Program-made: the position numbers and the translations under genes
NCBI GenBank assembly: GCA_964500005.1
Contig: CAZCMP010000005.1
Coordinates: forward strand, 77,075 to 141,074
Source of the DNA: an uncultured Thermococci archaeon
Lineage (GTDB): Archaea > Methanobacteriota_B > Thermococci > Methanofastidiosales > Methanofastidiosaceae
Direction: 5' to 3'
DNA length: 64,000 bases
In this document: in pieces, positions 6,509 through 28,956 of the stretch
Position numbering within the stretch: position 1 is the first letter of the stretch
How the letters are laid out: every line of letters starts with the position of its first letter
The notes under the pieces: generated by a model
Databases searched by the model: none
The model's input: only the letters and a program-made list of their open reading frames with translations
What the model was told of the DNA's origin: nothing

Positions 6509-6861
6509 TCGTTCACCTCCACAAAAGCAAGAACATCATGAGGACAGAATTGAACGCAATACCCACAGTGAATACAAACTGCAGGCTTACCATTTTCCCT
6601 TTCAAATATAGCCCCTATTGAGCATGCTTTCATACAGTTTTGGCAAGCTATACATTTATCTTCAATAAACATCACTCCGCCACCTTTCCGTGGAACTAAC
6701 GCACCAGTAGGGCATACTTCAACGCAGGGTGGCTCTTTACAGGCTCTACAAAATATAATTGTCGCCCCCATCTCAAATCCACTTAGGCTTACTGCTAAGA
6801 TTCCGGACGAGTTTATCCCTATCTCAGGTTTTTTGGGATTTTTTCTAGCACATGCAAACAT
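6505..6861 (-). CDS. 4Fe-4S poly-ferredoxin, putative AOR electron-transfer subunit (N-terminus probably extends to 6927)
   Basis: It carries three cluster motifs: CxxCx4Cx3CP, CxxCxxCx3C and CxxCxxCx3CP. A fourth motif, CVGCSLCMFAC, lies in frame upstream of the annotated ATG (see findings). Confidence 0.7.
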   Translation of the reverse strand: MFACARKNPKKPEIGINSSGILAVSLSGFEMGATIIFCRACKEPPCVEVCPTGALVPRKGGGVMFIEDKCIACQNCMKACSIGAIFERENGKPAVCIHCGYCVQFCPHDVLAFVEVND

Positions 6862-6927
6862 GCATAGGCTGCATCCAACACATTTTTCTATATCTTTAAT
6901 TTGTAGTTGTTTTAATTTACCAACTCC

Positions 6928-8247: not shown

Positions 8248-8255
8248 TTTAACAC

Positions 8256-9224
8256 TTATTTTATTTTAATAATTTTATGAGGATATTCACTGATTTTAGA
8301 ATTGATCTCCTCTATATCCAAAAATTTATTTTTTGCACCCAAGTATTGAATTACAGATTCGGCTTCAGTTGCCCCATATTCTAAGGCAATTTTGATATTT
8401 TTAGATTTCATGAAACCTGTAAGAAATCCTGCACCAAAACTATCTCCCGCCCCAGTAGTTTCTTTTACATTTACCTCGTTTGGTATAATCATATGTCCTT
8501 CTTTGTTTGTAAATGTATAAGCTCCATGATCGCCATCAGTTATTATTGCTATTTCTGGCCCATAACTAAGTAAATTATCTGCCATAAGTCTTGGATCAGT
8601 ATGGCCAGTAATCATTTTGGCTTCTTCAAAATTTACGCAAACTATATTAGAATTGTTAAGTATTTTTTCAAACTTTTCTATTCCTTTTCTTATTAAATAA
8701 GAACTAGGATTATACATTATCCCAATATTATTTTCATTTGCATATTTTGATATTTTTATCTGGGTGTCTAGTGAATCTTCAAGCATTGTACAAAGATAAA
8801 ACCATTTGGTGTTTAATCTTGATAAGTTAATTTCATTAAATCTAAGTTTATCATTTTTATCTTTTAAGGTAAGGATTGTCCTGTCCCTTCCTTTCGCATC
8901 CAGAATTACAGAATAATCTGAGAGGCCTTCTTCTTGTATCAATAAAGATGTATCACATTGAATAGAGTTTAGATATTTCAATATTTTATCTGCATTGTGA
9001 TCATCGCCTATTTTTCCCAATAATGCAACTTTCAATCCAAATGTTGCAAATGCTCCAGCAGTATTTGTTCCGCCACCTCCAATTTCAAAATTCATTGATT
9101 TAACAAGGATCTTGCTCCCATATGGTACGGATAATTGTCCATCTTTAGTTATTCTAAATAGATCTTTTCCTGTGTCTACAAATAGATCTATAGTACAACT
9201 ACCCATGGTAATAACGTCATACAT
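8256..9224 (-). CDS. PfkB-family carbohydrate kinase, probable ATP-dependent 6-phosphofructokinase
   Basis: It has the GG dipeptide, GGGGTN and the C-terminal TGAGDSFGAGF anion hole. It sits between fba and pgi. A GGTGA SD precedes the ATG. Confidence 0.7.
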   Translation of the reverse strand: MYDVITMGSCTIDLFVDTGKDLFRITKDGQLSVPYGSKILVKSMNFEIGGGGTNTAGAFATFGLKVALLGKIGDDHNADKILKYLNSIQCDTSLLIQEEGLSDYSVILDAKGRDRTILTLKDKNDKLRFNEINLSRLNTKWFYLCTMLEDSLDTQIKISKYANENNIGIMYNPSSYLIRKGIEKFEKILNNSNIVCVNFEEAKMITGHTDPRLMADNLLSYGPEIAIITDGDHGAYTFTNKEGHMIIPNEVNVKETTGAGDSFGAGFLTGFMKSKNIKIALEYGATEAESVIQYLGAKNKFLDIEEINSKISEYPHKIIKIK

Positions 9225-11448: not shown

Positions 11449-13647
11449 ATGAAAAGATTATTAATAGTTTCAAACAGACTGCCTATTACCATAGAAAAGA
11501 ATAATGAGGGCTTAAATTTTAAGCACAGCGTGGGGGGTCTTGCTACAGGACTTGCATCATTCTATAAAAACTATGATAGCACTTGGATAGGCTGGTGTGG
11601 GCTTTCTTCAGACAAAATAAATATCGATGAAAATAAATATATAAAGTCAAAGTTATTGGAAGAATATCAAAATTACCCAGTTTTTTTATCAAAAAAAGAT
11701 ATTGAACTATATTACAATGGATTTTGTAATAGTACTTTATGGCCACTTTTTCATGGATTCACACAGTATACCGAATATATAAAAAAGAATTGGGAGACTT
11801 ATAAAAGCGTAAACGAGAAGTTCTGTGAAGCCGTATGTGAAATTGCAAATAATGGGGATATAATCTGGATTCATGATTATCATTTAATGCTACTTCCAAA
11901 ACTAATTAGAGAAAAATTGCCCCATACTTCAATAGGATTCTTCTTACATATTCCATTCCCTTCTTTTGAGATCTATAGGCTACTGCCATGGAGAAGAGAT
12001 ATCCTTGAAGGGATTCTTGAAGCTGATTTGATTGGGTTTCATATATCTGATTATTCAAGGCATTTCTTATCAGGAGTATTAAGGATATTGGGATTTGAAA
12101 ACGTTGCAGGTAAAGTCTTCACGGGGAAACATTATTCTGAAGTCGATGCATTTCCTATGGGGATAGAGTATGATAAATTTTCAAGTATGGTAAAAGATGA
12201 AAATGTTCAAAAAAAAATAAATGAGATACGGGAGAAAATAGGGGAATATAAAACTATTTTTTCGATAGATAGGCTTGATTATACAAAAGGAATTCTCCAA
12301 AGACTTGAGGCATATGACTATTTTCTCGATAAGTATCCTACTTATAGGGGAAAGGTCGAATTAATTCTTGTAACAGTCCCATCAAGAACTAAAGTTGAGC
12401 ATTATGAAAAACTTAAAAACAAGATTGATGAATATGTTGGAAAAATAAATGGAAAATATGGAAGAGTAAACTGGACGCCAATTAGATATCTATATCGTTA
12501 TATCTCATATTATTCTCTTCTTTCATTGTACAATCTTTCTGATGTAGGATTGATAACCCCCATAAGAGATGGTATGAATTTAATTGCCAAGGAGTTAATA
12601 GCTTCAAAAAATGATGGAAAGGGAGTGCTTATCCTTAGTGAAATGGCCGGTGCTTCAGTTGAACTTGGAGAGGCATTGATAGTTAATCCAAACAATGCAG
12701 AAGAAATTGCAGATGCAATTAAAAAAGGATTGGAAATGCCAATAGATGAACAGATTGAAAGAAATAGAATCATGCAAAAAAGATTAAAAAAATATAATGT
12801 GACAAGATGGGCAGAAGATTTTATAGAAAAACTTGAAGAAGTAAAAAATGAACAGAAAACACTTGAAGTAAAACTTATTCTACCTTCAACTAAAATTGGC
12901 ATGATAAATAGATACAAAAAAAGTGAAAATCGTTTATTCTTGCTCGATTATGATGGAACTTTAGTTCCATTTTCAAATGCACCCCATAAAGCATTACCGG
13001 ATAATGAATTAATTTCTATTCTAAAAAATCTATCAAATGATCCTAAAAATAATGTTGTCATAATAAGTGGGCGCGATAAAAATACTCTTGAGAATTGGTT
13101 TAAAGGTGTCAATTTAAGTATTATAGCTGAGCATGGTGGGCAAATTAAGGAAAAAGGAAGCAATTGGATTTTAACTAAACCAGAGGAAGTAGAATGGAAA
13201 GGAAGAATCTTGCCTTTATTAGAACTGTATGTTGATAGAACGCCGGGATCATTAATCGAAAGTAAGGAACTTTCTCTTGTTTGGCACTATAGAAAAGTAG
13301 ATCCAGAGTTAGCAGCTATACGGTCTAAAGAACTAAAAGCAGCTTTAATGCACCTAACTTCTAATCTAAATGTGGGAGTTTTTGAAGGTAATAAAATTAT
13401 TGAAGTTAAGAATATAAATATAAATAAAGGACATGCGACTTCAAACTGGCTTAATAAAAATAAATGGGATTTTATAGTTACAATTGGAGACGATTTCACA
13501 GATGAAGATATCTTCAAAGTAGTTCCAGAAAATGCATATTCAATAAAGGTAGGTATTGAGCCTTCTCAAGCCAAGTACAATGTTGAATCGTACAAAGAAG
13601 TTAGGATATTACTAAAAGAATTAACCTCTGTAGAATCAAATGATTAG
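11449..13647 (+). CDS. bifunctional trehalose-6-phosphate synthase (GT20) / trehalose-6-phosphate phosphatase (HAD)
   Basis: The N-terminus LIVSNRLP...GGLATGL and GFFLHIPFP are OtsA-like. The C-terminus LFLLDYDGTL and GDDFTDE is an OtsB-like HAD domain. Confidence 0.85.
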   Translation: MKRLLIVSNRLPITIEKNNEGLNFKHSVGGLATGLASFYKNYDSTWIGWCGLSSDKINIDENKYIKSKLLEEYQNYPVFLSKKDIELYYNGFCNSTLWPLFHGFTQYTEYIKKNWETYKSVNEKFCEAVCEIANNGDIIWIHDYHLMLLPKLIREKLPHTSIGFFLHIPFPSFEIYRLLPWRRDILEGILEADLIGFHISDYSRHFLSGVLRILGFENVAGKVFTGKHYSEVDAFPMGIEYDKFSSMVKDENVQKKINEIREKIGEYKTIFSIDRLDYTKGILQRLEAYDYFLDKYPTYRGKVELILVTVPSRTKVEHYEKLKNKIDEYVGKINGKYGRVNWTPIRYLYRYISYYSLLSLYNLSDVGLITPIRDGMNLIAKELIASKNDGKGVLILSEMAGASVELGEALIVNPNNAEEIADAIKKGLEMPIDEQIERNRIMQKRLKKYNVTRWAEDFIEKLEEVKNEQKTLEVKLILPSTKIGMINRYKKSENRLFLLDYDGTLVPFSNAPHKALPDNELISILKNLSNDPKNNVVIISGRDKNTLENWFKGVNLSIIAEHGGQIKEKGSNWILTKPEEVEWKGRILPLLELYVDRTPGSLIESKELSLVWHYRKVDPELAAIRSKELKAALMHLTSNLNVGVFEGNKIIEVKNININKGHATSNWLNKNKWDFIVTIGDDFTDEDIFKVVPENAYSIKVGIEPSQAKYNVESYKEVRILLKELTSVESND

Positions 13648-14403
13648 CCTTCTTTTCATAAGTTTTATTGAAACAAAGAAGAATATTGTAGTTGTAGCTA
13701 AAATCCAGAGTAGACTAGTTACCATGGAAAAACTGTAAACACCCAGTGTTAACGCCCTGTTTATTATAACTATGTGGGCCAAGGGTAGTATGCTTAAAGC
13801 TACGTATTGTATTGCCTCGGGTAAAACTGTCATAGGAAAGAAAGTACCACTGAACAAAAACATGGGAGTAATAAATAGGAAATTTGGGTAGCTTAAAGCA
13901 TCAATTGTCGGGCTTAATGCAGTAAAACACATGGCGATACAGGAAAACAATAACCCTCCAAGAAATGCAAATGGAATAATAAGTAGAGATGATGGCATTT
14001 CGATAACGCCAAATGCCAAGAGTACAGGCAACATTATTGTGGCATAGATAGTGCTCCTAGTTGCACCCCAGAATAATTCCCCAGCAATAACTTCTTCTAT
14101 GGATATTGGGGTGGCTATCATGGCATCAAATGTCTTTAGATAGTACATTCTGACAAATGAGGTATATGTACACTCAAAAAAGGATGCCGTCATTACAGAT
14201 ATTGACACAAGTGCCGGGGCAATGAATTTTGCATATGGAACCCCGTCAACGCTTTCTATAAATCCGCCTAATCCAAATCCTAATGCCAATAGGTATAGAA
14301 TTGGCTCTAAGAAAGGTGGAACAAAATTTAGCTTCCAAGTCTTGACAAATGTTACAATATTTCTTCTCCAAGGTTTCAAAAGTCTATAGCTTAGCCCAAA
14401 CAT
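13636..14403 (-). CDS. ABC-2 type transporter permease
   Basis: It is a six-TM hydrophobic protein directly downstream of the ABC ATPase. Confidence 0.7.
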   Translation of the reverse strand: MFGLSYRLLKPWRRNIVTFVKTWKLNFVPPFLEPILYLLALGFGLGGFIESVDGVPYAKFIAPALVSISVMTASFFECTYTSFVRMYYLKTFDAMIATPISIEEVIAGELFWGATRSTIYATIMLPVLLAFGVIEMPSSLLIIPFAFLGGLLFSCIAMCFTALSPTIDALSYPNFLFITPMFLFSGTFFPMTVLPEAIQYVALSILPLAHIVIINRALTLGVYSFSMVTSLLWILATTTIFFFVSIKLMKRRLII

Positions 14404-14405
14404 AT

Positions 14406-15314
14406 CTATTCCCTTAGTTTTCTCCCCGTTAGTTTCAAAAATACATCTTCAAGTGTTGCAGGTCTTGCCGTGACCCCACTATCCACACACTCTTTGAGTA
14501 TTAGATTAGTTATATCGGATATATTCTCACTGTATACCTCTACATTTTCATTTGCAACTTCGTAGTTAATATTATTTTTTTCTAGACACGCCTTTATCTC
14601 TAGAGTATTTTCTGCTTCTACAATGTGTTCTCCTACATATTTCTTAACAAGTTCTTTTGGAGTTCCTTGAACTAGTATTTCTCCATTGTCCATAATAACA
14701 AGCCTATCGCATAGCTTTGCAGCTTCTTCCATGTAGTGAGTTGTTATTATAACAGTTATTCCTTTTGAGGAAAGATCCTTTAGTTTTTCCCAGATCAGAT
14801 GTCTTGCCTGAGGGTCAAGACCAGTAGTTGGTTCATCCAAAATCAATAGCTTAGGTTCATTAATCATTGCCCTTGCTAGAACAAGCCTCCTTTTCATCCC
14901 ACCAGAAAGTTTTTCCACTGAACTATCCTTTTTTTCCGTTAGTTGAACATATTCGATAAGTTCATTAGCACGTTTCTTTGCTTCATCTATAGGAATGTCA
15001 AAATACCTTGAGTACTGAATAAGGTTTCCAATAACTGAGAAATCGGGGTCAAGATTATCCATCTGAGGAACGACGCCCATAAGCTTCTTTATTTCTTTTT
15101 GATTGTGTTCAACTTCGAGACCAAATACCTTTAGGGCCCCCCCTGTTTTTGGTGAAACACACTGGATTATCTTCATTGTAGTCGTTTTACCTGCCCCATT
15201 TGGTCCTAAAAAGCCAAAAACTTCTCCTTCCTTTACCTCGAAATTGATCTTATTGACTGCTATAATATCACTGAATTTCTTTTCGAGATTTTTGGCTTCG
15301 AGAACTATTGTCAA
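14406..15314 (-). CDS. ABC transporter ATP-binding protein
   Basis: Walker A GPNGAGKTT, the signature LSGGMKRR and Walker B LLILDEPT are present. Confidence 0.85.
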   Translation of the reverse strand: MTIVLEAKNLEKKFSDIIAVNKINFEVKEGEVFGFLGPNGAGKTTTMKIIQCVSPKTGGALKVFGLEVEHNQKEIKKLMGVVPQMDNLDPDFSVIGNLIQYSRYFDIPIDEAKKRANELIEYVQLTEKKDSSVEKLSGGMKRRLVLARAMINEPKLLILDEPTTGLDPQARHLIWEKLKDLSSKGITVIITTHYMEEAAKLCDRLVIMDNGEILVQGTPKELVKKYVGEHIVEAENTLEIKACLEKNNINYEVANENVEVYSENISDITNLILKECVDSGVTARPATLEDVFLKLTGRKLRE

Positions 15315-15340
15315 TGAAACACCGATTAGGTTAATCTATC

Positions 15341-15641
15341 TTATTTTAAAATCTTTCCGCTTATTTCCCTCTTTTTAACCTGTTTACCCTACCCTAATCG
15401 ACTAAAAAATCAAAGCTTTTTCCGCACTTTTCCACCTAAAACAAGCTCTAAATCACAACATATATCCTCCTCCATACAGCTAAAAAATCGCACTCCCCTC
15501 TGCCCCCAAAACTCCAAAAATCGACCAAATTTTTTCGATCACTCAATTTTTTTTCAATCCCATTTTTTCGAAAAAATTCACTGATGTAACAATATATATG
15601 TTACAACATATATAATTATAAAATTATTACAATATAGACTT
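15341..15641. repeat. left arm of a ~300-bp imperfect inverted repeat (partner 20320-20640)
   Basis: By manual alignment it matches the reverse complement of 20320-20640 at ~80-85% identity. Shared blocks include ttccctctttttaacc.gtttaccc and gatg.aacaatatatatgtt..aacatatataattataaaattattacaat. Confidence 0.7.
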
Positions 15642-15752
15642 TACATCTTTTACATATAATGGTATAAAAAAAACAGAGAAAGTATCCCCTGTTTGATTAT
15701 TAAATATCGCAACCTATTAATTTATATAATTAAAAATTGTTTAAATAATGTG

Positions 15753-16748
15753 ATGCTGGATAATTCTACTTCTTGGAAGCGATACTTTAAATTTAGTCCA
15801 GTTACTCCACTTATTTTTTCTGAAAATCAGGCTATAAACTATTTCGTTAAGCGAGATATTTTAGATGAAGAGCCAAACAATATGGAGTCTTTATGGATTC
15901 TTCCAAAGGTCATATCACTTTTTAATAAACAACAGAAAGATGGATCTTGGAAGTATTCAGGTGCTAGAAAAGATATTAGCTCTCAAATGATTTACAATCA
16001 AATTGAAACTTATAGGATTATCCGAGTATTGGTTGAAAAATATGGGCTAAACAACACAAATGATGAAATCTCCAAAGCTTGCGAATTTCTCTTTTCCTTT
16101 CAGACAGAAGAAGGTGATTTCAGAGGGATATATGGTAATGAATACACGCCAAATTATTCTGCTGCGATTATGGAGATGTTAATAAAAGCAGGATATGAGA
16201 AAGATGATAGAATAGACCTTGGGATCAAATGGCTTATGTCTATTAGGCAAAATGATGGTGGTTGGGCCATACCATTTAGAACAACTAAACACAAGATTAA
16301 TTATGTCTTTAATGAAAATGATAAAAATGCTCCAATCAAAAATGACCCACTTAAACCTTCATCCCATTTAATAACAGGAATAGTTTTGAGGGCATTTGCA
16401 TCACACAACCACTACAAAAAATCAATTGAGGCAAAGAGAGCGGGGAATTTTCTTAAATCTCAATTTTTTAAGAAAGATAATTATCCTGATCGTGGGACAA
16501 CTGATTATTGGGAAAAGTTAGCTTATCCATTCTGGTGGACTGATATAGTTTCCTCTCTTGATTCTCTTTCGAAACTCCAATTTAACCCAAAGGACAGTGA
16601 CATAAAAAAAGGATTAGAGTATCTTATTGATAATCAGAGGTCAGATGGAACCTGGAAAGTATATTATGGCCTCCCAAAAGATGATAACAATGATTTATGG
16701 ATAAATTTGGCTATTTGTAGAATTTTCAAGAGATTTTATTCTATATAA
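15753..16748 (+). CDS. prenyltransferase / squalene-cyclase-like (QW-motif alpha/alpha toroid) repeat protein
   Basis: It has repeated Q-x2-DG(S/G/T)W motifs (QKDGSWKYSG, QNDGGWAIPF, QRSDGTWKV) and GGF-like repeats (EEGDFRGIYG...YS.AIMEML). The track start at 15693 is TTG. The first ATG is at 15753. Confidence 0.6.
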   Translation: MLDNSTSWKRYFKFSPVTPLIFSENQAINYFVKRDILDEEPNNMESLWILPKVISLFNKQQKDGSWKYSGARKDISSQMIYNQIETYRIIRVLVEKYGLNNTNDEISKACEFLFSFQTEEGDFRGIYGNEYTPNYSAAIMEMLIKAGYEKDDRIDLGIKWLMSIRQNDGGWAIPFRTTKHKINYVFNENDKNAPIKNDPLKPSSHLITGIVLRAFASHNHYKKSIEAKRAGNFLKSQFFKKDNYPDRGTTDYWEKLAYPFWWTDIVSSLDSLSKLQFNPKDSDIKKGLEYLIDNQRSDGTWKVYYGLPKDDNNDLWINLAICRIFKRFYSI

Positions 16749-17193
16749 ATTAAATAATTAATCGATTAGGGCGGGCTAATCGACTAAAATAATTATTTTA
16801 GAAAATTATTTATTGATTAAATTTGAAAAATATAAATATCAACATATATATTTTATATAATATATATTTAAATAATTATTGCATTAAATAATTGATAATT
16901 TTTAACATTAGTAGCTAAAAATAGAATATCATGATGTTGTAGTATTTTCCTAAATAGAGATAATGGAATCGGTATTTATTAATCAAAATTTTTCGGTAGT
17001 TAGGATTAAATATTATACTTCCTTGTCAAATGACCGATAATATGGAATCTATCCCTATGCCCGATTAAGTCTTATTAAAAATGAAGGCATTATAGTTCTT
17101 TTTGTTCTATTGTCAATACAGCCACTTTACAGATTTTTAAGATAATCTCCAAAGAAGGACTATTTAAAATCTATTTATACCGGAGTAATTAAG

Positions 17194-17210
17194 ATAATTG
17201 CAATAATTAT
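17194..17210 (+). promoter_or_regulatory. copy of recurrent ATAATTGCAATAATT(TTA) box followed by a TATA-like element
   Basis: Copies of the same ~18-nt semi-palindromic box recur at 18464-18479, 18960-18977 and 20329-20346. Each is followed within 10 nt by a (T)TTATATA-like element. Confidence 0.25.
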
Positions 17211-17415
17211 ATAAAATTATATAATGTAGAATATTATAATGAATAATAATTGCAATTTCCCATTAACCCTGGATTAAATGTTATTATTGAAATTAGATTG
17301 CCATTTATTTTTGGCATAATTTTTTGAATATGATAATGGAATTGGAATTCATTTACCAACTTTTTATAGGGGATAAAAATAAATACTTTGCAATCCTATT
17401 TAATAAGGTGAGAAT

Positions 17416-17613
17416 ATGGGATTAATGTCTTGGGTAGATAAGAAATCAGAAAAAATAAGCGCCTGGGATATTGCGTTTGTAAAAATTGGTGCTATGATAT
17501 TTGGCCTTATTATCGGGGCTTACTTTCCAGTTTTAGTAAAACAGTATGTTATACTGCTTATAGTTCTTTTTATACTATTTTCCGCGAAACCTGTTTATGT
17601 ATTTTTCAAATAG
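17416..17613 (+). CDS. small hypothetical membrane protein
   Basis: The 65-aa ORF has one or two TM segments and a GGTGAG SD 6 nt upstream. Confidence 0.35.
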   Translation: MGLMSWVDKKSEKISAWDIAFVKIGAMIFGLIIGAYFPVLVKQYVILLIVLFILFSAKPVYVFFK

Positions 17614-18047
17614 TTTGCTGAAATACATTTTTATCTAATTACCGGGCTTATTTGAATAAAAAGAAGACTTTAGAGATATTAAAAATAATTTAATATCGCC
17701 AAAAATAACGGGGCGATCTGATATCTAGAACTACCTTTAGTTTGAGTCCTAATTATCCCTAAAAAGGCCCTAATATCGTCCTTTATAGCTAAATATATGA
17801 GAAAATCTGCTTTATTACGTATAATATACATTATACGCAATAAATAATAGGATAAATACTAGAAAAAAGCCAGGGTAAACAAGCCATTTAGGGCCTATTT
17901 TACCTATAATTCATATTATCTCAAGAATTTAAAAATCTTATTATTCGCAAACGGTTTTTTTAGTCGTTTAGGGTGGGCTAGATAAAAATAAAATACCTTT
18001 CTAAGAGGATATTTTTAAATGTAAAAGAACAAATAGTCTATGATATT

Positions 18048-18398
18048 ATGGCCGGAGCTTCGAAAGAAGTAAGCGAGTATATTAACAGTTTACCAGAGGA
18101 TAAAAAAGAGATAGTAAAAGCACTTAGAAAGATTATTTTATCTGTAGACCCTAGCCTAGATGAATCGTTAAAGTGGAAGCAGCCAGTATACTCAAAGAAA
18201 GGAGATATATGTTATTTATTCCCTGCTGGCAATCATGTTAATCTAGGATTCTATAACGGTACAGAGCTTAAAGATCCTAAGAAGATGCTTGATGGGATTG
18301 GAAAGACGATGAGGCATATCAAAATAAGGGATTTAGGAGATATAGATAAAGAATATTTTTGGGAATTGATATCCGATGCCATTTCCAAAGATAGATGA
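18048..18398 (+). CDS. DUF1801 (YdhG-like) domain protein
   Basis: It has the ...GKTMRHIKI.. C-terminal pattern and is a paralog of 27177-27533. Confidence 0.6.
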   Translation: MAGASKEVSEYINSLPEDKKEIVKALRKIILSVDPSLDESLKWKQPVYSKKGDICYLFPAGNHVNLGFYNGTELKDPKKMLDGIGKTMRHIKIRDLGDIDKEYFWELISDAISKDR

Positions 18399-18463
18399 TT
18401 TTGCAATAAATTTACAATAATATATTTCATATAAAATATTTTGAAATAATATTTGCAATTATA

Positions 18464-18479
18464 ACTTGCAATAATTTTA
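18464..18479 (+). promoter_or_regulatory. copy of TTGCAATAATTTTA box + TATA-like element
   Basis: The sequence acttgcaataattttacatttatatat is present here. Confidence 0.25.
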
Positions 18480-18533
18480 CATTTATATATTATTAATAAT
18501 AATGTTTTATATAATTATTGCAATTATTCTTGA

Positions 18534-18857
18534 TTATTCTTTTTCCTTCTTCAATATGAATGGCAGTGTTGTAAATGATGTCCCTATCAGCAATATTCCG
18601 ACAATTCCTATTATCCTTGCTATGGATATCGTATTCGCCCCAAGTAGAGTACCGTTAAACATTAAGAAAGCCCCGATCAAAGCTAATGATAGCCCTATTA
18701 TGAACTGGATAGTAAACCTTTTCTTATGAATATCCCCTTTTCCCTGGAATAAAGACCCTTTTCTATTACTAAATGCTACGAATAGCACTAGTAATAATAA
18801 AATAATCCCGATTATGATGAGTACCATAGCTGGATTCACCATATAAAATATAAGCAT
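18534..18857 (-). CDS. hypothetical integral membrane protein
   Basis: The 107-aa product has three predicted TM helices. The opposite-strand ORF is rejected. Confidence 0.45.
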   Translation of the reverse strand: MLIFYMVNPAMVLIIIGIILLLLVLFVAFSNRKGSLFQGKGDIHKKRFTIQFIIGLSLALIGAFLMFNGTLLGANTISIARIIGIVGILLIGTSFTTLPFILKKEKE

Positions 18858-18959
18858 AACTTCTATTTAAGGTTTTTGTTTATTAGATTAATTAAAAAAT
18901 CTTAAATATTTAATAAATATCGGAAATATGTTACTAAATCCTATTTAATATAATAAGTG

Positions 18960-18977
18960 ATAATTGCAATAATTTTA
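18960..18977 (+). promoter_or_regulatory. copy of ATAATTGCAATAATTTTA box + TATA-like element
   Basis: The sequence ataattgcaataattttatgtttatatatat is present here. Confidence 0.25.
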
Positions 18978-19095
18978 TGTTTATATATATCCTAATATAT
19001 AAATAGTTAAGATCCTAAAATACAATATTTTCCTTGTCTAGGCTACCCTAAACAAGAACAAAATACTATTAAAAATATAGAAAATTAATAATAGA

Positions 19096-20145
19096 TCAAT
19101 TAACGTTGCAGCCTTCTAGATCTGGGTGATTTTTGCATCTGTTGTTTCTTAGTATTGAAAGGAATTTATTCATTGGAAGTGTAGTTGGACAGCCAGTGTT
19201 ACCTCTTGCATTAAGTTTTGGGTCTCCGATAAAGTAACTGTCGTTAGGATCGTCGTATATGTCTATGTCCTTTCCGTTGTTGCAGAACTGATTGTAGTAC
19301 ACTTTTGTCCCTGTTGGATTTCCGTCTGCATGGACAAAGTTATGATCATGGCGTTCCTGTATACCGAATTTTGGATTATTCCTGATAATATTGTTTCTAA
19401 TTAATGTATTTGTTACTATCCCACCGATTTCAATTCCTCTATCCACTGATTTTTCGATTATGTTATTTTCAACTAGAACATCGGAGATTTCTCCATTGCC
19501 CCATGTAACTATGCTTATTCCGATATCGCCCCCACCGAGAATATGATTGTCTTTAATAAGAATGTTTTTCGCTTTTGAATTCCAAGTTACGCCCATTATT
19601 CCGGCGCTATCCCAGCCTTCCTTATAAGGTCCTCCTTCTACTATGTTTCCGATAACTTTTGAATCATTTCCTGCAACTTGAATTCCAACACGAAGATGGT
19701 TAGGTACTTTTATTTTGTTATTTAGTATATTGCAAGTTGTTCCTTCTCCACTGCCCGTTCCCTGAATAATTCCAAAAGATTCAGGCGATGTGCTGGATAA
19801 AATAATAGTAAAGCCTTCCACAGTTATCGTCCCTAGATTCTTACCATCAATATTGATTACCCTATAGCTTGTAACGCTTGTGCCAGGTCCGATTATTGTT
19901 GAATCTCTTCCCCCTACAGATTTTAATGTAATATTTGATTTATTTATCACGACGTTTTCATTATAAGTACCTGGATATACGAGTATGGTGTCACCGGCAG
20001 CTGCTGCAGTGATTGCATCTCCGATCGTTGTATATGTTTTTCCAGCTCCCACTTCACGAGTAGTAGCTGCACTTACTGGATCAATAATAGCCAATATAGA
20101 AACAACTAATAAAATTCCTATAATTATCGATTTTATTTTTTTCAT
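19096..20145 (-). CDS. secreted right-handed parallel beta-helix (pectate-lyase/NosD-like) repeat protein
   Basis: It has a signal peptide MKKIKSIIIGILLVVSILAIIDPVSA. It has beta-helix repeats with N/G/I ladders. The N-terminal TILVYPGTYNENVVI motif is shared with 25720-27084. Confidence 0.75.
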   Translation of the reverse strand: MKKIKSIIIGILLVVSILAIIDPVSAATTREVGAGKTYTTIGDAITAAAAGDTILVYPGTYNENVVINKSNITLKSVGGRDSTIIGPGTSVTSYRVINIDGKNLGTITVEGFTIILSSTSPESFGIIQGTGSGEGTTCNILNNKIKVPNHLRVGIQVAGNDSKVIGNIVEGGPYKEGWDSAGIMGVTWNSKAKNILIKDNHILGGGDIGISIVTWGNGEISDVLVENNIIEKSVDRGIEIGGIVTNTLIRNNIIRNNPKFGIQERHDHNFVHADGNPTGTKVYYNQFCNNGKDIDIYDDPNDSYFIGDPKLNARGNTGCPTTLPMNKFLSILRNNRCKNHPDLEGCNVN

Positions 20146-20319
20146 AATTTTTCACCATTTTTTTTATTAGATATAGATAATTGTACCTAATTATTAGATA
20201 TTTTATTATATATAAAGCTTTTGGTAACGATAATTATAGCTGGTAATTAAAAATTATAATTGTTAATTATTAATAGTTATTAAATATTATTATTGTTAAA
20301 CGATAACTACTAAAAAATA

Positions 20320-20640
20320 TATTGGATAATAATTGTAATAATTTTATAATTATATATGTTACAACATATATATTGTTGCATCTTGAGATTTTTAGAAAAA
20401 AATGCAGAAAAAAAATTGAGCGATGGGGGAAATTTTAATTGAGTTTTGGAAAAAATAGAGGGATAAAATGGTCTAAAGCGGCTGTGCTGGAACAGTATCG
20501 CCTATGATATATGTTGAGTAATCCGAGCCGATTTAAGGCGGAAAAGGAAGGGAAAAGCTCCGATTATTTAACCGATTATGGCGGGGGTAAACGGGTTAAA
20601 AAGAGAGGGAAAAAAGGAAATATTTTAAAATAAAATATAT
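20320..20640. repeat. right arm of the ~300-bp inverted repeat (partner 15341-15641)
   Basis: Its reverse complement aligns with 15341-15641. It also contains an ATAATTGTAATAATTTTA box at 20329-20346. Confidence 0.7.
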
Positions 20641-21866
20641 TATCCGGTGTAACCAAGTTCTCTCGCCCTGTCGAAACACTGTTGAGCTTCAGAGTATCTT
20701 CCTAAGTCCTGAAGTGTTCGCCCTTTGTTATTCCATGCGAGGGCATAGTTAGGGTCTATTGCAATAGCTTTGTCATAGGAAATTAAGGCTTCAGAGTTTT
20801 TTCCAAGGTTTCTGAGTGCTACTCCCCTATTGTTCCATGCTTGTTTATAGTCGGGATCTATTGCAAGCGCTTTATCGTATGAGATTATGGCTTCAGAAGG
20901 CCTTCCAAGGTTTCTGAGTGCTATCCCTCTGCCATACCATGCTTCTTTGATGTTTGGATCCAATGATATCGCCTTGTCGTAGACTTGTAGTGCTTCTGTG
21001 TACCTTTCAAGAAGTCTAAGTGCGGCCCCCTTACCGACCCATGCAAGGGCATAGTTTGAATCTATAGAAATCGCTTTATCAAAATTAGTTATGGCTTCAG
21101 AGTGCCTATCTAGCTCATTGTATGCATATCCCCTCCAATACCATGCTTCTTTGATGTTTGGATCTATAGAAATCGCTTTGTTATAAGATTGTATTGCTTC
21201 AGGATACCTTTCAAGATCTATGAGAGCTTTTCCTTTATTTGTCCATGCATCCTTAAAGTTTGAATCCATAGAAATAGCCTTATCAAAGCAAGTTATGGCT
21301 TCAGAATATTTCTTTTGTCCTTGAAGTAAAATCCCCTTGCCATTCCAGGAATTAACTAGGTATTTCTTAGTTTCTTTGTAATCAGGATCAAGCTCCATAA
21401 CTTTCTCAAAATTTTTTATTGCTTCATCATATTTTGCTTGATCATAAAAAGACACGCCTTCGTTGTATAACTTTTCAGCTTCAGATGCGCCTGGAAATAA
21501 AATAAGGGCGGCTACCAAAATAATAACTACTCCAATGCCCCCTATTGCAATTATCTTTTTTTTGCCTTTAGGCGTGGGAGATTCCTGATAATTTTTTGCT
21601 TCGGCTTTAGGGGGTTCCATTGTTTTTTCAAAAGGAGTCCCACATTGCCCACAAACCTGATCAGACAATGCCATTTTAGATCCACAGTTTTGACATATCT
21701 TACCCTCTGCTTCTACCTTTGTGCCACAAGATGGACAAAAGAGAGAGCCTCTAGGAAAAGAACTATTACATTTACTGCATTTATTTTCGTCCATTATATC
21801 CCATTTAGCCATATTATTTAGCATATATAAGGGTATGGAAAATAAAATAAATATTCTTTCATGCAT
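20640..21866 (-). CDS. double zinc-ribbon / TM / TPR-repeat protein
   Basis: The N-terminus has CxxC...CxxC x2. It has one TM helix and about 8 TPR repeats (AW..KG.AL..L.RY.EA...YDKAI.IDPN). The C-terminus is ELGYTG. It is a paralog of 38103-38837. Confidence 0.8.
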   Translation of the reverse strand: MHERIFILFSIPLYMLNNMAKWDIMDENKCSKCNSSFPRGSLFCPSCGTKVEAEGKICQNCGSKMALSDQVCGQCGTPFEKTMEPPKAEAKNYQESPTPKGKKKIIAIGGIGVVIILVAALILFPGASEAEKLYNEGVSFYDQAKYDEAIKNFEKVMELDPDYKETKKYLVNSWNGKGILLQGQKKYSEAITCFDKAISMDSNFKDAWTNKGKALIDLERYPEAIQSYNKAISIDPNIKEAWYWRGYAYNELDRHSEAITNFDKAISIDSNYALAWVGKGAALRLLERYTEALQVYDKAISLDPNIKEAWYGRGIALRNLGRPSEAIISYDKALAIDPDYKQAWNNRGVALRNLGKNSEALISYDKAIAIDPNYALAWNNKGRTLQDLGRYSEAQQCFDRARELGYTG

Positions 21867-23418: not shown

Positions 23419-24339
23419 TTAATCTTCCTGATTTTCCTTTAGGATTTTTAATATCTGTGCAATTGGAAGTGAAGGTTTATTTCCTGCTTTTGCCAATCTG
23501 CTTGGATTCCAATTTATTATCTGATTAATTTCTTGGAGGTCGTATTTCATTTTGGCATCTTTATAGTTGTATAGGTCTTGTGCAAGTGCTATGGCATCAT
23601 TGTTGTTAAATGCCATCCCTCCAAAGTGCATTAGGACGACAGTCTGCCCCGGATTAACGGTGACATTCTCCCAACTGTAATTAATATACCCGCTTTCATC
23701 AGAGAACTCCCACAGCGAATCTATTCTGTCAGAACCACCAGGCCCATCCCATACATGAGAAAGAGAAGGGTCATGTGTACCATCGCCATTATCAGTAAGC
23801 TGGTCATACGATACTGCCCAGTAATCGTTTACATCTGCTAATGCATCGCCACTTGAAGTTTTAACAACTCGATTGTTAGAGTCAGAGCCAAAATTTGAAT
23901 ATATCCGCACACCAACTGATATAGGGGATTCTGTGGGATTGTAAAGTATCTCTAAATACCTTACCCAGTTCCGATCTTCAGGGAAGTAAACCTTGCGCCT
24001 AACAATCAGATTAGACATAGTATAATCATCCAAAAAGTATTCTCTGCCATCTGCTTCTGTAGTGTAGTTCTCGCTATCATCGTTATTGTACTGTGGATAA
24101 TCCTTTGGATTTCCGATTCCAACATAAAGGCGGAAAGCATGTTCGTCATATGCATCACGTAAGGATCCATCCTTGCTGTGTGCATCATTAATATGTCCAA
24201 ATTTCGTATCAAAATCATCAAAAATGAAGTCCATAACATCTACGTCAAATTTATCGCCGAAAACAGACGCAATCCCAAACGTACTTACTATAAATAGAAA
24301 GCTTATCAATATCGCCATTATTTTCTTCATAATAATCAC
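23419..24339 (-). CDS. secreted hypothetical protein with conserved C-terminal ILKILKENQED tail
   Basis: It has a signal peptide. There are no recognisable domains. The C-terminal 16 aa are shared with 25720-27084. Confidence 0.55.
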   Translation of the reverse strand: MIIMKKIMAILISFLFIVSTFGIASVFGDKFDVDVMDFIFDDFDTKFGHINDAHSKDGSLRDAYDEHAFRLYVGIGNPKDYPQYNNDDSENYTTEADGREYFLDDYTMSNLIVRRKVYFPEDRNWVRYLEILYNPTESPISVGVRIYSNFGSDSNNRVVKTSSGDALADVNDYWAVSYDQLTDNGDGTHDPSLSHVWDGPGGSDRIDSLWEFSDESGYINYSWENVTVNPGQTVVLMHFGGMAFNNNDAIALAQDLYNYKDAKMKYDLQEINQIINWNPSRLAKAGNKPSLPIAQILKILKENQED

Positions 24340-25719: not shown

Positions 25720-27084
25720 TTATTTTTCTTCGTTTTCCTTTAGGATCTTAATTATCTTATCCACCGGGAGATATTGAGTCTCTGAGCCACCTATAGATGG
25801 GTAGTGGTACCCCATATCTACAGTTCCTCTATCAAATACCCCTTTGACATTTGTCGTAAAACCTGTTGAAAGACTAAGGTTTTTAGCTAAGTCAGAACCA
25901 CTGTCAACACAAGGGCTCAAATTAGAGAGGTAGAATTCCCCTAAGGGCCCTTTGGTGAAAATTGGATCTACAGATATGCATCCTTCACCAGGCTCTACCC
26001 CTCCAAATGCTTGTCCCCAGTTGTCCTTGTTGTTCCAGGAATTAGAATATATAATTGAGTTGAAAAATAATAAGGGGGGTACCCATATGCCGTAAACGGG
26101 TGTTAGGTCATCGCTAGCAGTATTACTGCTTACTATGCAATTTTCAACTGTTATGCCAACACCTATGGCAGAAATTCCATAAACTGATCTTCCGTCAGTA
26201 TAAATATTATTGATGGAATTATTACTAACGGTACAATTGATAATTAAACTGTTTTCCGTTAGATAAGGATTATCCACGTCAAGATTAATACCTTCCAAAT
26301 AAGTTCCCCTTAGGAGCTTATTTCCGCTGATTGAAATATTTTTTATTAAAAAAGGGCTTTTGCCCGCAAGATATACGCCAATTAAGGCCTCCCCATTTTC
26401 TAAAGTGTTATTGTTGACCGTTCCATTTTTTATTGTCCAATTGTTGCCACCCCCAACTACAGGCCTAAATGTAGAAGTAATTTTAAACAAATTTCTGTCA
26501 AATTCAAACCCATCTATCAACCAGTTATTTCCATAGCCTGAAATACCAATAATACGGATTCCATTATAAAAAATATTATCACTCATAGAAACGTTTTTTA
26601 CTGACCAATTGTCTCCTATTCCAAGTATACAAGAAAGATCTCCAGACACAGGAATGACGTCTGTCGTGAGGTCGAATTTACAGTTTTCTATTGTTACATT
26701 GCTTCCCTTAAAGGTAATACCATATAACTGAAAATTTCTTAAACCAAGATTTTTGATTGTTATATCGTTTAGAATCTTATTTGTATAATCATAATTACCT
26801 ATACAAATATCAGATCCTCCTCTACAATCAATTATGGTGTTTAAAGGGTCATCCCCTATTATGGTGACATTTGGATTATTGATTTCGATCCCATTTGGGT
26901 ATGTGCTAATGTCATATGTTCCATAGTGTACATAGACTGTATCCCCCGGTTCTGCTGCACCTATCTTGGCTACAATGTCGTCCCCTGGGTAAACATGTAT
27001 ATTTCCAGCAGAAACTGGATTCAAAAAGATAAGAAAAGCGCCTAAAATAATAAAGACCGTTATAATACTTGATACTTTTTTCAT
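25720..27084 (-). CDS. secreted right-handed parallel beta-helix repeat protein with C-terminal IIKILKENEEK tail
   Basis: It has a signal peptide MKKVSSIITVFIILGAFLIFLNPVSA. It has extensive beta-helix repeats (NN..NN.I....G). It is a paralog-like of 19096-20145. Confidence 0.75.
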   Translation of the reverse strand: MKKVSSIITVFIILGAFLIFLNPVSAGNIHVYPGDDIVAKIGAAEPGDTVYVHYGTYDISTYPNGIEINNPNVTIIGDDPLNTIIDCRGGSDICIGNYDYTNKILNDITIKNLGLRNFQLYGITFKGSNVTIENCKFDLTTDVIPVSGDLSCILGIGDNWSVKNVSMSDNIFYNGIRIIGISGYGNNWLIDGFEFDRNLFKITSTFRPVVGGGNNWTIKNGTVNNNTLENGEALIGVYLAGKSPFLIKNISISGNKLLRGTYLEGINLDVDNPYLTENSLIINCTVSNNSINNIYTDGRSVYGISAIGVGITVENCIVSSNTASDDLTPVYGIWVPPLLFFNSIIYSNSWNNKDNWGQAFGGVEPGEGCISVDPIFTKGPLGEFYLSNLSPCVDSGSDLAKNLSLSTGFTTNVKGVFDRGTVDMGYHYPSIGGSETQYLPVDKIIKILKENEEK

Positions 27085-27176
27085 GAAAAACACCATTATA
27101 ATTGTAAAAATAGATAATCATTAATATTTAAATATTTGCTTAAGTTGAAAAGTAAAATAATTTTGAAAATAAAAAA

Positions 27177-27533
27177 TTATTTTTTGTATTTTGGATGGAC
27201 AGGGGATGCCTTTTCACGCACTAATTGGATAATTTTAACGAGCTCTTCTTTATTAATTGAGTCGATGTTTTCAAATTTCAAGTGGCGCATAGTCTTTCCC
27301 CCACCTTGAAATAATTTAACTTCCTCTGGCGTTAGTCCAACAATTGAGAATCCCATGTTAATTTGTTTAGGGAGATTTGCAATGTAATACAGATCATCAT
27401 AGCACATTACGCCATATTCCATTTTTTCGTTTAGACTAGGGATTGCATCAAGCAGAACTTTGCGTAAGTATAACATTATTTTTTGTCTTTCAAGAGGTTG
27501 TTTTTCTAAATATTGTTTTATCTGTGGATTCAT
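27177..27533 (-). CDS. DUF1801 (YdhG-like) domain protein
   Basis: It has GGGKTMRHLKF.. and is a paralog of 18048-18398. Confidence 0.6.
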   Translation of the reverse strand: MNPQIKQYLEKQPLERQKIMLYLRKVLLDAIPSLNEKMEYGVMCYDDLYYIANLPKQINMGFSIVGLTPEEVKLFQGGGKTMRHLKFENIDSINKEELVKIIQLVREKASPVHPKYKK

Positions 27534-27636: not shown

Positions 27637-28956
27637 TTATGAGACAACAAAGTCTATTGTGGCAGTGTCAAATACGCCACTTGGCGAGTATGCGACCATT
27701 GTAACCTTGTATGTGCCTGAAGGAACGTTTGAACCCAATGTGAATAATGCAGAGTATGCGCCTATGTTGTGTGCCTTTAGCTTTTGTGTTTCCGGTACAG
27801 TTTGAACTGTGACGCCTTCTGGAAGCCCGTCAAATCTTAACCTTGTGTCGTTTTGTGTAAAGAACCCTCTGTTCTCTACCTGTAGGAACACCTGTTGGCT
27901 ACCGGGGGACATTTCAAATGATGATATGATCTTACCATCTTGGATTACAGTTTCCCCTCCTGGGACTGAGAATGTCTCAATGTCTACCTTTGGGTAGAGT
28001 ATTGTGGCAGGGAGCGATGGATTCGGTTTGCAGTCGTAGCAGCATTTCTGCTCAAGTGAGAATAATAATCGACCTTTTCCCTCGATTGTGATTGTCCTTG
28101 GAACGCCTTGAATCATGACAACATCAGGCATTTGGTCAAAAGGCCTCTCACCATTGTACCAGACAACCATGTGTGGGTAATTATTGGCTAGTACTGCAAA
28201 GCTTCGGACTTCACATGTAGGAAGGCTTAATGGTACGCCGTTTATCACAATTTCTCCACATCCAGCAAATAGCATAATCACATACTCGTTGACATCACAT
28301 TTGTAGTTTGCAGGCATGTTGTATCCGCTGCAATTTGTTGCACATTCAAGTGAAGGGTTGCTTCCACACCCCCTCATGTCAAAGCAACAGCTATTTATCA
28401 GCTTTCTATCCTCTGAACTAAAATCCCCTTCGCCAGCACACGGTGGAGGCTCATTAAAGAATGTTCTGGAGTCGTTGCATGATGGAACATTGATAACCAA
28501 TGATTTAATTTCTGCTCCACCCACATATTCAAAGTATGATTGTTTACCATATAGATAACATTCAGAGCTTTCACAACTTTCAAGGCATTGATTAAAAAAT
28601 GGCATATCGCCACAAGATTCATAGCAGTAAGCTAAGCATGACTGTGTGGATTTTGGCATATTTACACATAATAGATCCCTTGCATAGCATCCTTTCACAT
28701 TGCTAATGTATATCTCCATCCAGTAAGGATGGAACCATCTTTGTTGGCACTCAAAAAAAGCATTGTATGAGCAGTCATCACATGGATCATATTGGTCAAC
28801 TGTTTGAGGTTGAGAACACGACTTCATGCAATCATTGAAGATGCATTCTTGACATCCCGAAGGAAGAGTATCTTCGCATGGTTCTTGTGAACTTGCAATA
28901 GAAAAACTTGCTATTCCCATAAGGAAAACTATAGTTAAAGCTAATATTTTTTTCAT
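27637..28956 (-). CDS. cysteine-rich secreted protein with C-terminal Ig-like/CARDB-like beta-sandwich domain (paralog A)
   Basis: It has a signal peptide MKKILALTIVFLMGIASFSIASS. More than 40 Cys lie in the N-terminal two-thirds. The C-terminal ~170 aa are ~95% identical to 45926-47329. Confidence 0.75.
   Translation of the reverse strand: MKKILALTIVFLMGIASFSIASSQEPCEDTLPSGCQECIFNDCMKSCSQPQTVDQYDPCDDCSYNAFFECQQRWFHPYWMEIYISNVKGCYARDLLCVNMPKSTQSCLAYCYESCGDMPFFNQCLESCESSECYLYGKQSYFEYVGGAEIKSLVINVPSCNDSRTFFNEPPPCAGEGDFSSEDRKLINSCCFDMRGCGSNPSLECATNCSGYNMPANYKCDVNEYVIMLFAGCGEIVINGVPLSLPTCEVRSFAVLANNYPHMVVWYNGERPFDQMPDVVMIQGVPRTITIEGKGRLLFSLEQKCCYDCKPNPSLPATILYPKVDIETFSVPGGETVIQDGKIISSFEMSPGSQQVFLQVENRGFFTQNDTRLRFDGLPEGVTVQTVPETQKLKAHNIGAYSALFTLGSNVPSGTYKVTMVAYSPSGVFDTATIDFVVS

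Follow-up and report, generated by a model that had tools for sequence, protein, structure and literature searches.

A long inverted repeat in a Methanofastidiosaceae genome, read as two paralogous copies of a candidate control module

What does a long inverted repeat signify when it brackets a few genes at one place in an archaeal chromosome? The question is raised by a 64,000-nucleotide stretch of DNA (contig CAZCMP010000005.1, positions 77,075 to 141,074; hereafter the window) from an uncultured member of the Methanofastidiosaceae, in which two arms of about 310 bp (315 and 327 nt by profile) bracket 4.7 kb. The Methanofastidiosa are an uncultured class of methyl-reducing methanogens, common in digesters. 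The original prediction, made from the window alone, described a 5.3-kb cassette with two convergent cargo genes, one for a QW-repeat protein and one for a secreted beta-helix protein, and offered three options: a duplicated regulatory region, the ends of a non-autonomous or invertible element, or the remnant of an integrated one. Comparison with related genomes leads us to read the arms as two paralogous copies of a Methanofastidiosum-specific, non-coding intergenic module, and, on balance, this module is probably lineage-specific cis-regulatory, protein-binding control DNA.

The repeat itself is borne out by aligning the window with itself (blastn): 15329-15633 matches 20645-20332 over 319 columns at 72% identity (E 1.2e-37), and the sequence blocks originally quoted for it are present. 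The identity of ~80-85% first given for the whole repeat was too high; values in that range belong to the best ungapped blocks only, 85% for 15561-15633/20332-20404 and 82% for 15329-15389/20585-20645. The arm-to-arm local alignment scores 162, compared with 20.8 +/- 2.7 for 300 shuffles of one arm (z ~53), and the top score of an arm against other AT-rich intergenic regions of the window is 41, from a stretch that holds a partial module copy. The similarity is therefore not a matter of composition, and the prospect that it might be generic AT-rich low complexity, raised with the prediction, falls away. Where a ~40-bp diverged insert had been described, the middle of the arms (~15470-15520 against 20445-20500) is indeed diverged, with an 8-nt indel in place of a clean insert. 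Nor do the arms lie immediately 5' of genes, as had been thought: 119 nt (15634-15752) intervene on the left, before the QW gene, and 186 nt (20146-20331) on the right, before the beta-helix gene. These spacers are mutually unrelated, each with its own promoter resembling a B-recognition element (BRE) and TATA box, and hence the upstream regions of the two genes are not identical, contrary to what was first proposed. The inverted match may extend ~25 nt outward, to 15300-15328 and 20646-20668 (GAGAACT ... ACACCG), a length too short for statistics; the extension reaches the first codons of an ATP-binding cassette (ABC) ATPase gene on the left and the last codons of a TPR-protein gene on the right, and the stop codon of the latter falls inside the right arm.

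The nature of the arms emerges from related Candidatus Methanofastidiosum, whose contigs or loci used for comparison carry L-numbers (L003, L004, L086, etc.). A profile was seeded with the window arms and three similar segments, and extra loci were collected by a 19-mer of the best-conserved block, Box 3. Searched with nhmmer, the profile recovers full module copies in ~15 distinct Methanofastidiosum contigs; in the 64-kb window, neither nhmmer nor blastn finds a third full copy. In all copies found, the module is non-coding, spans ~250-310 nt with five conserved boxes, and sits at the same locus, linked to the ABC genes left of the repeat (ABC1). No open reading frame (ORF) is conserved within it, and the indels between copies are not multiples of three. 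Toward the neighbouring gene the layout runs from a T-rich stretch through Box 1, Box 2, and Box 3 to the palindromic, AT-rich Box 4/5, with the following consensus sequences:

Box 1: GTTTACC-CTACCCTAATCRGTTAAAAAA
Box 2: ACAAYATATATCCTnnGCGATACTATT
Box 3: CCAAAACTCAATTAAAATTTnCCCCATCACTCWATTTTT
Box 4: GTAACAATATATAT
Box 5: ATATATRATTAAAWAATTATTGCAAT

Box 3 carries two direct ACTCAATT repeats, and Box 4/5 terminates in AATTATTGCAAT. The Box 5 end faces a start codon at ~115-210 nt in 12 of 16 distinct copies, while in the rest the next gene is ~600 nt away. At 125-207 nt from the Box 5 end of full copies lies the gene for a 101-108-aa transmembrane protein (orthologous to the 102-aa protein of the window) in L003, L004, L008, L039, and L068, and a gene for a signal-peptide protein in the window, L038, L084, L112, and L086; one L086 copy precedes a cupredoxin lipoprotein gene. 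When the Box 3 19-mer was searched against GTDB genomes and JGI metagenomes, most matches were due to chance, and the true copies were separated by nhmmer; the GTDB Methanofastidiosum genomes that matched have one exact Box 3 each. An exact 27-mer from the arm core gave 0 matches in GTDB genomes, whose representatives do not include the source species.

In the window, the two copies and their parts are these:

15324-15638 (+): left arm, the left module copy (nhmmer, 209 bits; blastn inverted repeat)
15341-15356 (-): TATA-like TTTTAAAATAAG of the ABC ATPase gene (start 15314), in the outer end of the left arm; read from the sequence, with a homologous position in L004 and L035
15382-15411 (+): Box 1 of the left arm, GTTTACCCTACCCTAATCGACTAAAAAATC (alignments)
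15454-15478 (+): Box 2 of the left arm, CACAACATATATCC..CATACA (alignment; ACAAYATATAT motif)
15513-15554 (+): Box 3 of the left arm, a degenerate form of the family consensus CCAAAACTCAATTAAAATTTnCCCCATCACTCAATTTTT (alignments)
15584-15633 (+): Box 4/5 of the left arm, palindromic and AT-rich, TGTAACA-ATATATA-TGTTACA ... AATTATTACAAT (alignment)
20328-20654 (-): right arm, the right module copy (nhmmer, 229 bits)
20332-20382 (-): Box 4/5 of the right arm
20408-20450 (-): Box 3 of the right arm
20491-20518 (-): Box 2 of the right arm
20562-20592 (-): Box 1 of the right arm

The motif ACAAYATATAT of Box 2 has 5 matches in the window, all within the arms, where 0.08 would be expected; extra copies of the Box 1 core CCTAATCGACTAAAA are found at 16775(+), 16756(-), and 17958(-). 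The outer ~45 nt of the left arm double as the promoter region of the divergent ABC ATPase gene, and its outer 30 nt match the ABC upstream region of L035 at 87-92%. The same TTTTAAAATAAG recurs at the outer end of the right arm (~20619-20634); in fact, the outer ~45 nt of both arms hold the TATA region of the ABC1 promoter, TTATTTTAAAAT, which is present upstream of ABC1 in L035 too. The right arm has two faces. Its inner half, with the 5' region and the signal peptide, is orthologous to L086 (85% over 327 nt), and from Box 3 to Box 5 4 of ~127 positions differ (~97% identical); its outer half is unlike L086 and similar to the left arm. By these alignments the right arm is a mosaic.

Inward-facing module pairs also occur in three other lineages, around the same core of genes for a 65-aa transmembrane protein, a DUF1801 protein or fragment, and a ~105-aa transmembrane protein:

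L086: 1716-1954(+) and 6323-6052(-)
L112: 543-798(+) and 4592-4434(-)
L094: 7-200(+) and 2379-2217(-)

L003, L004, and L008 have the right module alone, with short Box 4/5 copies at the left. Since inverted pairs are found in three other lineages, the pair is old within one type of island, and neither a recent duplication in the window nor the two ends of an insertion. The alignments show the two copies to be paralogues of long standing, made mosaic by recombination or gene conversion.

The module does not stand alone. The TTGCAA-type unit of Box 4/5 recurs by itself at further intergenic sites of the island (17196-17257, 16826-16888, and 18963-19009), and both short modules and tandem units can be recognized:

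16757-16888 (+): short module after the QW stop codon, without Boxes 2 and 3; Box 1-like hairpin 16757-16790 and Box 4/5-like 16826-16888
17196-17257 (no strand): unit C, a 62-bp palindromic unit (TTGCAATAAT...ATTATTGCAA) 159 nt ahead of the 65-aa gene; conserved in 12 loci
18399-18533 (no strand): two tandem 62-bp palindromic units of the TTGCAATAAT...ATTATTGCAA type, 18401-18462 and 18466-18527, with four TTGCAA-type sites
18963-19064 (no strand): short module upstream of the 102-aa gene and just 3' of the beta-helix gene; Box 4/5-like 18963-19009 and Box 1-like 19028-19064

Homologues of the short module at 16757-16888 stand 3' of QW and of the cupredoxin gene in L003, and 3' of the radical SAM gene in L004. 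The 65-aa, DUF1801, and 102-aa genes of the window are 85-87% identical to those of L086, and these coding sequences are the yardstick for the DNA between them: the 135-nt spacer of the DUF1801 and 102-aa genes (18399-18533) is 94.8% identical, 19024-19098 is 88-96% identical, and Boxes 3-5 of the right arm, at ~97%, likewise exceed the neighbouring genes, which points to functional DNA. Across 11 genomes, the tandem units keep their four sites while the spacers between sites vary, with 0 compensatory changes in 28 predicted pairs; the TTGCAA sites thus persist as sequence rather than as a hairpin. As read from the sequence, the TTGCAA cores are spaced by 52 bp, or about five helical turns, in the palindromic units, and by 41 bp, or about four turns, in Box 4/5. 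Another conserved non-coding piece, 17818-17962 (+), is 90-98% identical to L086; it begins with a perfect palindrome, CGTATAAT-ATAC-ATTATACG at 17818-17837, invariant in 7 genomes, and continues with a TATA-like GGATAAATACTAG at 17850-17862, a conserved hairpin (GGGUAAA...UUUACC), and a T7 run at 17955-17961. The part from 17850 to 17962 is a candidate small transcription unit of ~90 nt, with no Rfam match.

The genes of the island and its flanks, with the promoters that lie outside the repeat, are as follows:

11449-13647 (+): OtsAB fusion
13636-14403 (-): NodJ-like ABC-2 permease
14406-15314 (-): NodI-like ABC ATPase
15717-15731 (+): TATA-like box TTAATTTATATAATT of the QW gene itself, ~25 nt upstream of its ATG (15753) and outside the repeat (sequence; spacing as at other window promoters)
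15753-16748 (+): QW-repeat alpha/alpha-toroid protein, 331 aa, widespread in archaea (Pfam SQHop_cyclase_C, 7.7e-13; homologues; AlphaFold pLDDT 91)
17416-17613 (+): 65-aa membrane protein, island core (orthologues in 17 loci; substitutions biased to codon position 3)
18048-18398 (+): DUF1801/DUF5655 protein, island core (Pfam, 3e-19; orthologues)
18534-18842 (-): ~102-aa membrane protein, annotated as 107 aa from an upstream ATG, island core (conserved; substitutions concentrated at codon position 3)
19096-20145 (-): secreted right-handed beta-helix protein (signal peptide and last 28 aa both common to unrelated secreted proteins at the same position elsewhere)
20205-20222 (-): the beta-helix gene's own BRE/TATA-like AAAGCTTTATATATAAT, outside the repeat; the TATA (TTTATATA) ends 63 nt before the ATG
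20640-21866 (-): zinc-ribbon/TPR protein

The 1.3-kb and 0.7-kb stretches that had been taken as non-coding each hold a real small gene (17416-17613 and 18534-18842). The QW, DUF1801, and 102-aa genes have TATA-like boxes at the customary distance of -25 to -35, and the beta-helix gene has its BRE/TATA at about -70 and a GGTGA ribosome-binding site. The window belongs to Candidatus Methanofastidiosum: homologues of its QW protein carry that name in NCBI, and Methanofastidiosum contigs share the gene order left of the repeat, and the island core genes are at this locus in all of the contigs examined. Here the first of the three original options, which comes nearest of them, meets its difficulty. 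In the relatives examined, no arm lies between the ABC ATPase and QW genes; the place is taken by a gene for a 63-67-aa two-helix membrane protein, and the pairing of module and QW gene occurs in the window only. A duplicated regulatory region linking the QW and beta-helix genes therefore fails for QW. What stands of that option is a conserved non-coding module upstream of genes; what does not is a directly shared upstream sequence, the link to QW, and the functional link between QW and beta-helix. The arrangement of a QW gene with its own promoter behind the left module is, by the contig comparison, unique to the lineage of the window. Set against L053-like lineages, the window gives the impression that a QW gene came in behind the left module, ahead of the next unit, together with its own promoter and a Box 1-like hairpin at its 3' end.

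The 63-67-aa gene of the relatives starts a longer series. It lies 8-20 nt upstream of QW (L003 9789-9992, L004 5917-6120, L007 9790-9981, and L117 7179-7382), and QW is followed by genes for a 411-419-aa protein without a Pfam match and a radical SAM/SPASM enzyme (L004 7185-9923). The window has neither the 63-67-aa, nor the 411-419-aa, nor the radical SAM gene at this locus, while paralogues of the last two are at 27637-28956, 45926-47338, and 48599-50008. A second DUF1801 gene at 27177-27533 (-) adjoins the paralogue of the 414-aa protein (27637-28956), echoing the association in the island. That the left arm might be a decayed copy of the 63-67-aa gene was considered and rejected, since tblastn with this protein finds no trace of it in the window. 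Also set aside was a NosDFY-like system built from the ABC ATPase, the ABC-2 permease, and the beta-helix protein: the transporter is NodIJ/DrrAB-like, and the NosD match reaches 32 bits, compared with a cut-off of 300.

The features expected of control DNA are a fixed orientation and position upstream of genes and a conservation above that of the neighbouring coding sequence, and the module has both. As we picture it, one or more putative transcription factors would bind the phased TTGCAA sites and the boxes cooperatively, in an Lrp-like manner, and binding would co-regulate the genes of the island, which are mostly for small membrane proteins and exported proteins. The left module, facing right, and the right module, facing left, bracket the core of the 65-aa, DUF1801, and ~105-aa genes, and, being repeated, the modules would also serve as recombination substrates that reshuffle the genes next to them. 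Several observations weigh against this picture. We infer the regulatory role from position and conservation alone; for promoter-proximal control in archaea, ~250 nt of conserved upstream sequence is an unusual length; and no gene for an Lrp-like or other regulator was found among the window ORFs scanned. The next gene is ~600 nt off for the left-hand copies in L053, L035, and L112, and two of the palindromic units lie between convergent 3' ends, where a role in promoter control is not obvious. In the left arm, as in the other secondary copies (L086a, L094b, and L112b), Box 3 has degenerated, and the left arm may therefore be a relic in decay. Moreover, the invariance of Box 3 is partly built in, many loci having been picked by an exact Box 3 pattern; the loci free of this selection bias are L003, L004, L008, L086, and the window only.

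A different kind of function would be a transcript. Each arm could be a duplicated gene for a small, largely unstructured RNA, e.g., a C-rich one running from Box 2 through Box 3 to the T-run. The sense strand of the module is C-rich and G-poor (GC skew -0.4 to -0.5); in 12 copies, Box 3 is invariably followed at once by five or more T, a possible RNA end; the ATATAT core of Box 2 lies ~60-70 nt upstream of Box 3; and the island has, at 17850-17962, a plausible small transcription unit of the RNA-gene kind. However, neither strand shows conserved structure or covariation. RNAalifold on the 12 copies yields -1.66 kcal/mol in the gene sense and -3.1 kcal/mol on the other strand, with tiny AT hairpins only. 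Rfam gives 0 matches at the gathering threshold in the whole window and 0 at E <= 1 in 15200-20800. Box 2 fits the TATA boxes before the genes of this genome poorly, and the interval that separates Box 2 from Box 3 is not conserved across subgroups. T-runs of this kind are expected to terminate archaeal transcription, and since both strands of the arms carry several runs of five to eight T, archaeal RNA polymerase should stop early. The RNA gene is thus an unlikely reading. By eye, the motifs needed for a C/D-box small RNA or for a G-quadruplex on the G-rich strand are not conserved, and both candidates were dropped.

Two inverted ~310-bp copies around 4.7 kb call to mind the terminal repeats of a non-autonomous transposon, or a stretch of DNA flipped by a site-specific recombinase, which was the second of the original options. 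The recurrence of inverted pairs in three other lineages would be in keeping with it, as would the variation of the outer flanks (ABC, radical SAM, or ICMT on the left; TPR, RNase H/HerA, a second ABC pair, or YgjP on the right). Against it stands, first, the absence of any enzyme: as originally noted, there is no transposase or integrase inside the segment (Pfam, PHROGs), and over all ORFs of 13.6-25.6 kb the same databases give no rve, DDE, Y1, or serine- or tyrosine-recombinase match, nor is there an invertase in or beside the segment. The bases just beyond the arms (…ACACCGATTAG| and |TATCCGGTGT…) form no direct repeat and weakly continue the inverted match, leaving no target-site duplication. 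The arms are merely 72% identical. All module copies found lie in the one ABC1-linked island, with no dispersed copies. Comparison of the locus across related genomes shows it in the same place with the core in the same orientation, the segment being neither inverted nor wholly absent. Relative to ABC1 and QW, the order 65aa(+), DUF1801(+), ~105aa(-) holds in the assembled contigs of the window, L003, L004, L008, and L086, with no inversion variant, and an independently assembled contig, ERZ724101 NODE_4408, has the same genes in the orientation of the window with arms 100% identical. Relatives lack the left arm only, not the whole segment. We therefore regard a transposon or inverting segment as very improbable.

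The third option fares no better. A remnant of an integrated virus or plasmid, or for that matter a replication origin with inverted recognition boxes, might be imagined from the long AT-rich non-coding stretches with their many inverted repeats, and the G-runs beside conserved boxes are, as we take them, loosely reminiscent of the archaeal origin recognition box (ORB) elements. However, the segment shows no similarity to phage or plasmid records and no phage-family genes, with no PHROG matches beyond repeat-domain noise; four IMG/VR contigs that contain the Box 3 19-mer have no module; no orc1/cdc6, rep, or par gene is among the ORFs scanned; cumulative GC skew has no turning point at 15-21 kb; and the core genes are at the locus in every Methanofastidiosum contig examined. 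This reading we hold to be the least probable of all.

The reading that competes most seriously with control DNA comes from gene exchange. Between the window and L004, identity of 92% runs over 4,014 nt and breaks off precisely where the ABC ATPase gene starts, at 15314 (L004 5820), the outer edge of the left arm; beyond it, the QW genes are 74% identical in nucleotides and 73% in protein. As far as such alignments can tell, the left arm therefore marks a sharp boundary of recombination or replacement, with a conserved flank on one side and a variable island on the other. The secreted gene tells a similar story at the other end. Its body is replaced between genomes, encoding the beta-helix in the window (19183-20088), an unrelated 276-aa protein in L086 (5127-5816), and a 407-aa beta-propeller in L038 (3931-4989), while its first ~19 codons with the signal peptide, its last 28 codons, and both flanks with the inner module stay 80-96% identical, as if cassettes had been exchanged while the ends of the gene were kept. 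Short modules, made of Box 1 and Box 4/5, trail the stop codons of different genes in different genomes, and the genes next to modules vary (67aa-QW-411aa-rSAM, where rSAM is the radical SAM gene; ICMT; cupredoxin; CorA). Together with the mosaic arms, all this would fit modules that are chiefly portable homology arms for the swapping, insertion, and deletion of genes, the inverted repeat being their by-product and substrate. Such a role is compatible with regulation. As the chief explanation, it is nonetheless one we would give a minority chance: coding DNA is less conserved than Boxes 3-5 and the TTGCAA units, whose degree of conservation is more than homology arms need and argues for a sequence-specific function beyond homology; no site-specific recombinase was found; and the breakpoints are inferred from few metagenomic contigs.

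What lies outside the modules is variable on the right in particular. The DNA right of the right module differs in every lineage, as in an accessory-gene hotspot, and orthologues of the genes right of the right arm are in no related contig. In L086, the right module is adjoined on its outer side by genes for an RNase H-like protein and a large P-loop ATPase (HerA-like by eye), at 6333-8295 (-). In L094 (2651-4392), L112 (4839-6589), and L038 (6750-7721), a second ABC ATPase and ABC-2 permease pair, 40% identical to the first, is divergent from the right module, and this position suggests an island layout that may originally have been mirror-symmetric. In the window, the TPR gene takes the position of the second ABC pair, and the ABC1-type TATA sequence is kept at the outer end of the right arm. 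When homologues of the TPR protein were sought, generic TPR proteins dominated the matches, which said nothing about synteny.

How does the module compare with systems already described? Arrays of degenerate, AT-rich palindromes at regular spacing are the binding sites of archaeal Lrp-type regulators (PMC1802622), and Ss-LrpB of Sulfolobus solfataricus binds three regularly spaced boxes of consensus TTGCAAAATTTGCAA (PMC1802622). The module is like the Ss-LrpB control region in having several degenerate, AT-rich, semi-palindromic boxes with TTGCAA-type arms and whole-turn spacing upstream of BRE/TATA. It is unlike that region in that single TTGCAA cores with AT-rich flanks lie 41 or 52 bp apart, in place of 15-bp TTGCA-N5-TGCAA boxes, in that the sites are joined to three more conserved boxes in a module of ~250 nt, and in that there is no adjacent regulator gene. 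The parallel is offered as a resemblance, not a test. Bacterial repetitive extragenic palindromes (REP/BIME) and Correia/NEMIS elements are likewise short intergenic palindromes, often 3' of genes, that can be duplicated and serve as recombination substrates, but the units described here show no hairpin-preserving changes, are more conserved than neighbouring genes, and are confined to the island: of the 9 TTGYAATAWT matches in the 64 kb, 7 fall within 15.6-22.2 kb, so the units are not dispersed through the genome. Insertion sequences, miniature inverted-repeat transposable elements, and invertible segments share with the locus two inverted copies around a few kilobases of cargo, and differ from it, as here there is no transposase or invertase, no target-site duplication, 72% identity, a fixed locus, and no orientation variants; the arms are also far longer and more diverged than typical terminal inverted repeats. 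Integron cassette arrays are similar in that variable genes are flanked by recurrent imperfect palindromes and content differs among close relatives; here, unlike in integrons, there is no integrase, genes lie in both orientations with their own promoters, and the attC R''/R' core (RYYYAAC/GTTRRRY) was not seen by eye. In any case, the module is an undescribed instance of an ordinary class, that of conserved cis-elements duplicated within one locus.

There remains the cargo, for which the original prediction had a prenyltransferase-like label on the QW gene. The AlphaFold model of the QW protein (pLDDT 91) has class II terpene cyclases as its best Foldseek matches, at a TM-score of ~0.46, and no protein prenyltransferase among the top 50; it is weakly terpene-cyclase-like and, judged by these matches, unlike protein prenyltransferases. 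The exported proteins share a C-terminal motif, (S)LPxxxhhKILKxN, found in the window at 19096-19182 (-), 23419-24339 (-), and 25720-27096 (-), in L086 at 5040-5126, and in L038 at 3766-3930. The subfamily linked to modules adds RCKNHxDxEGC and three residues (...NRCKNHPDLEGC and three), with Cys at position -4, and complete tails end in CNVN, CNVI, or CQAG (window, L086, L038, L084, L108/L112, and P0122, a small sample). A search with a 66-aa tail query returned one fragment, and an exhaustive 46-aa search four relevant proteins, all Methanofastidiosum-like, which makes the tail family small and lineage-restricted. In L035 only, a gene for an ICMT/PEMT-family membrane methyltransferase (PF04140, 9e-9) lies at 5815-6513 (+), between ABC1 and the left module; no ICMT-family gene is present in the window.

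From the Cys-plus-three tails, the QW toroid, and the one-lineage ICMT-family gene at the same locus, one could build the idea that the island encodes a prokaryotic counterpart of CaaX processing, in which the QW toroid would attach an isoprenoid to the tail Cys and, in this genome, the module would co-regulate the enzyme through the left arm and its substrate through the right. If true, this would be a C-terminal lipid anchor on archaeal surface proteins by a route distinct from archaeosortase. The idea is very doubtful: the QW model is not like prenyltransferase beta subunits, other exported proteins carry LPxxxxKILKxN without the Cys, and the proposed substrates are Sec-exported. As for an alpha subunit, the TPR protein was tried and rejected, its PPTA matches being summed sub-threshold repeats and orthologues being absent from the relatives.

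To our knowledge, almost nothing is known of gene regulation and genome plasticity in the Methanofastidiosa. For those who scan genomes, the lesson is one of caution, in that a long inverted repeat around cargo can be two convergent copies of a conserved intergenic region. For the organism itself, the island is a clear case of exported-protein genes swapped between conserved ends, with a recombination breakpoint mapped exactly at a gene start, and the multi-box element with its phased TTGCAA sites could be used as bait for the protein that would bind it.

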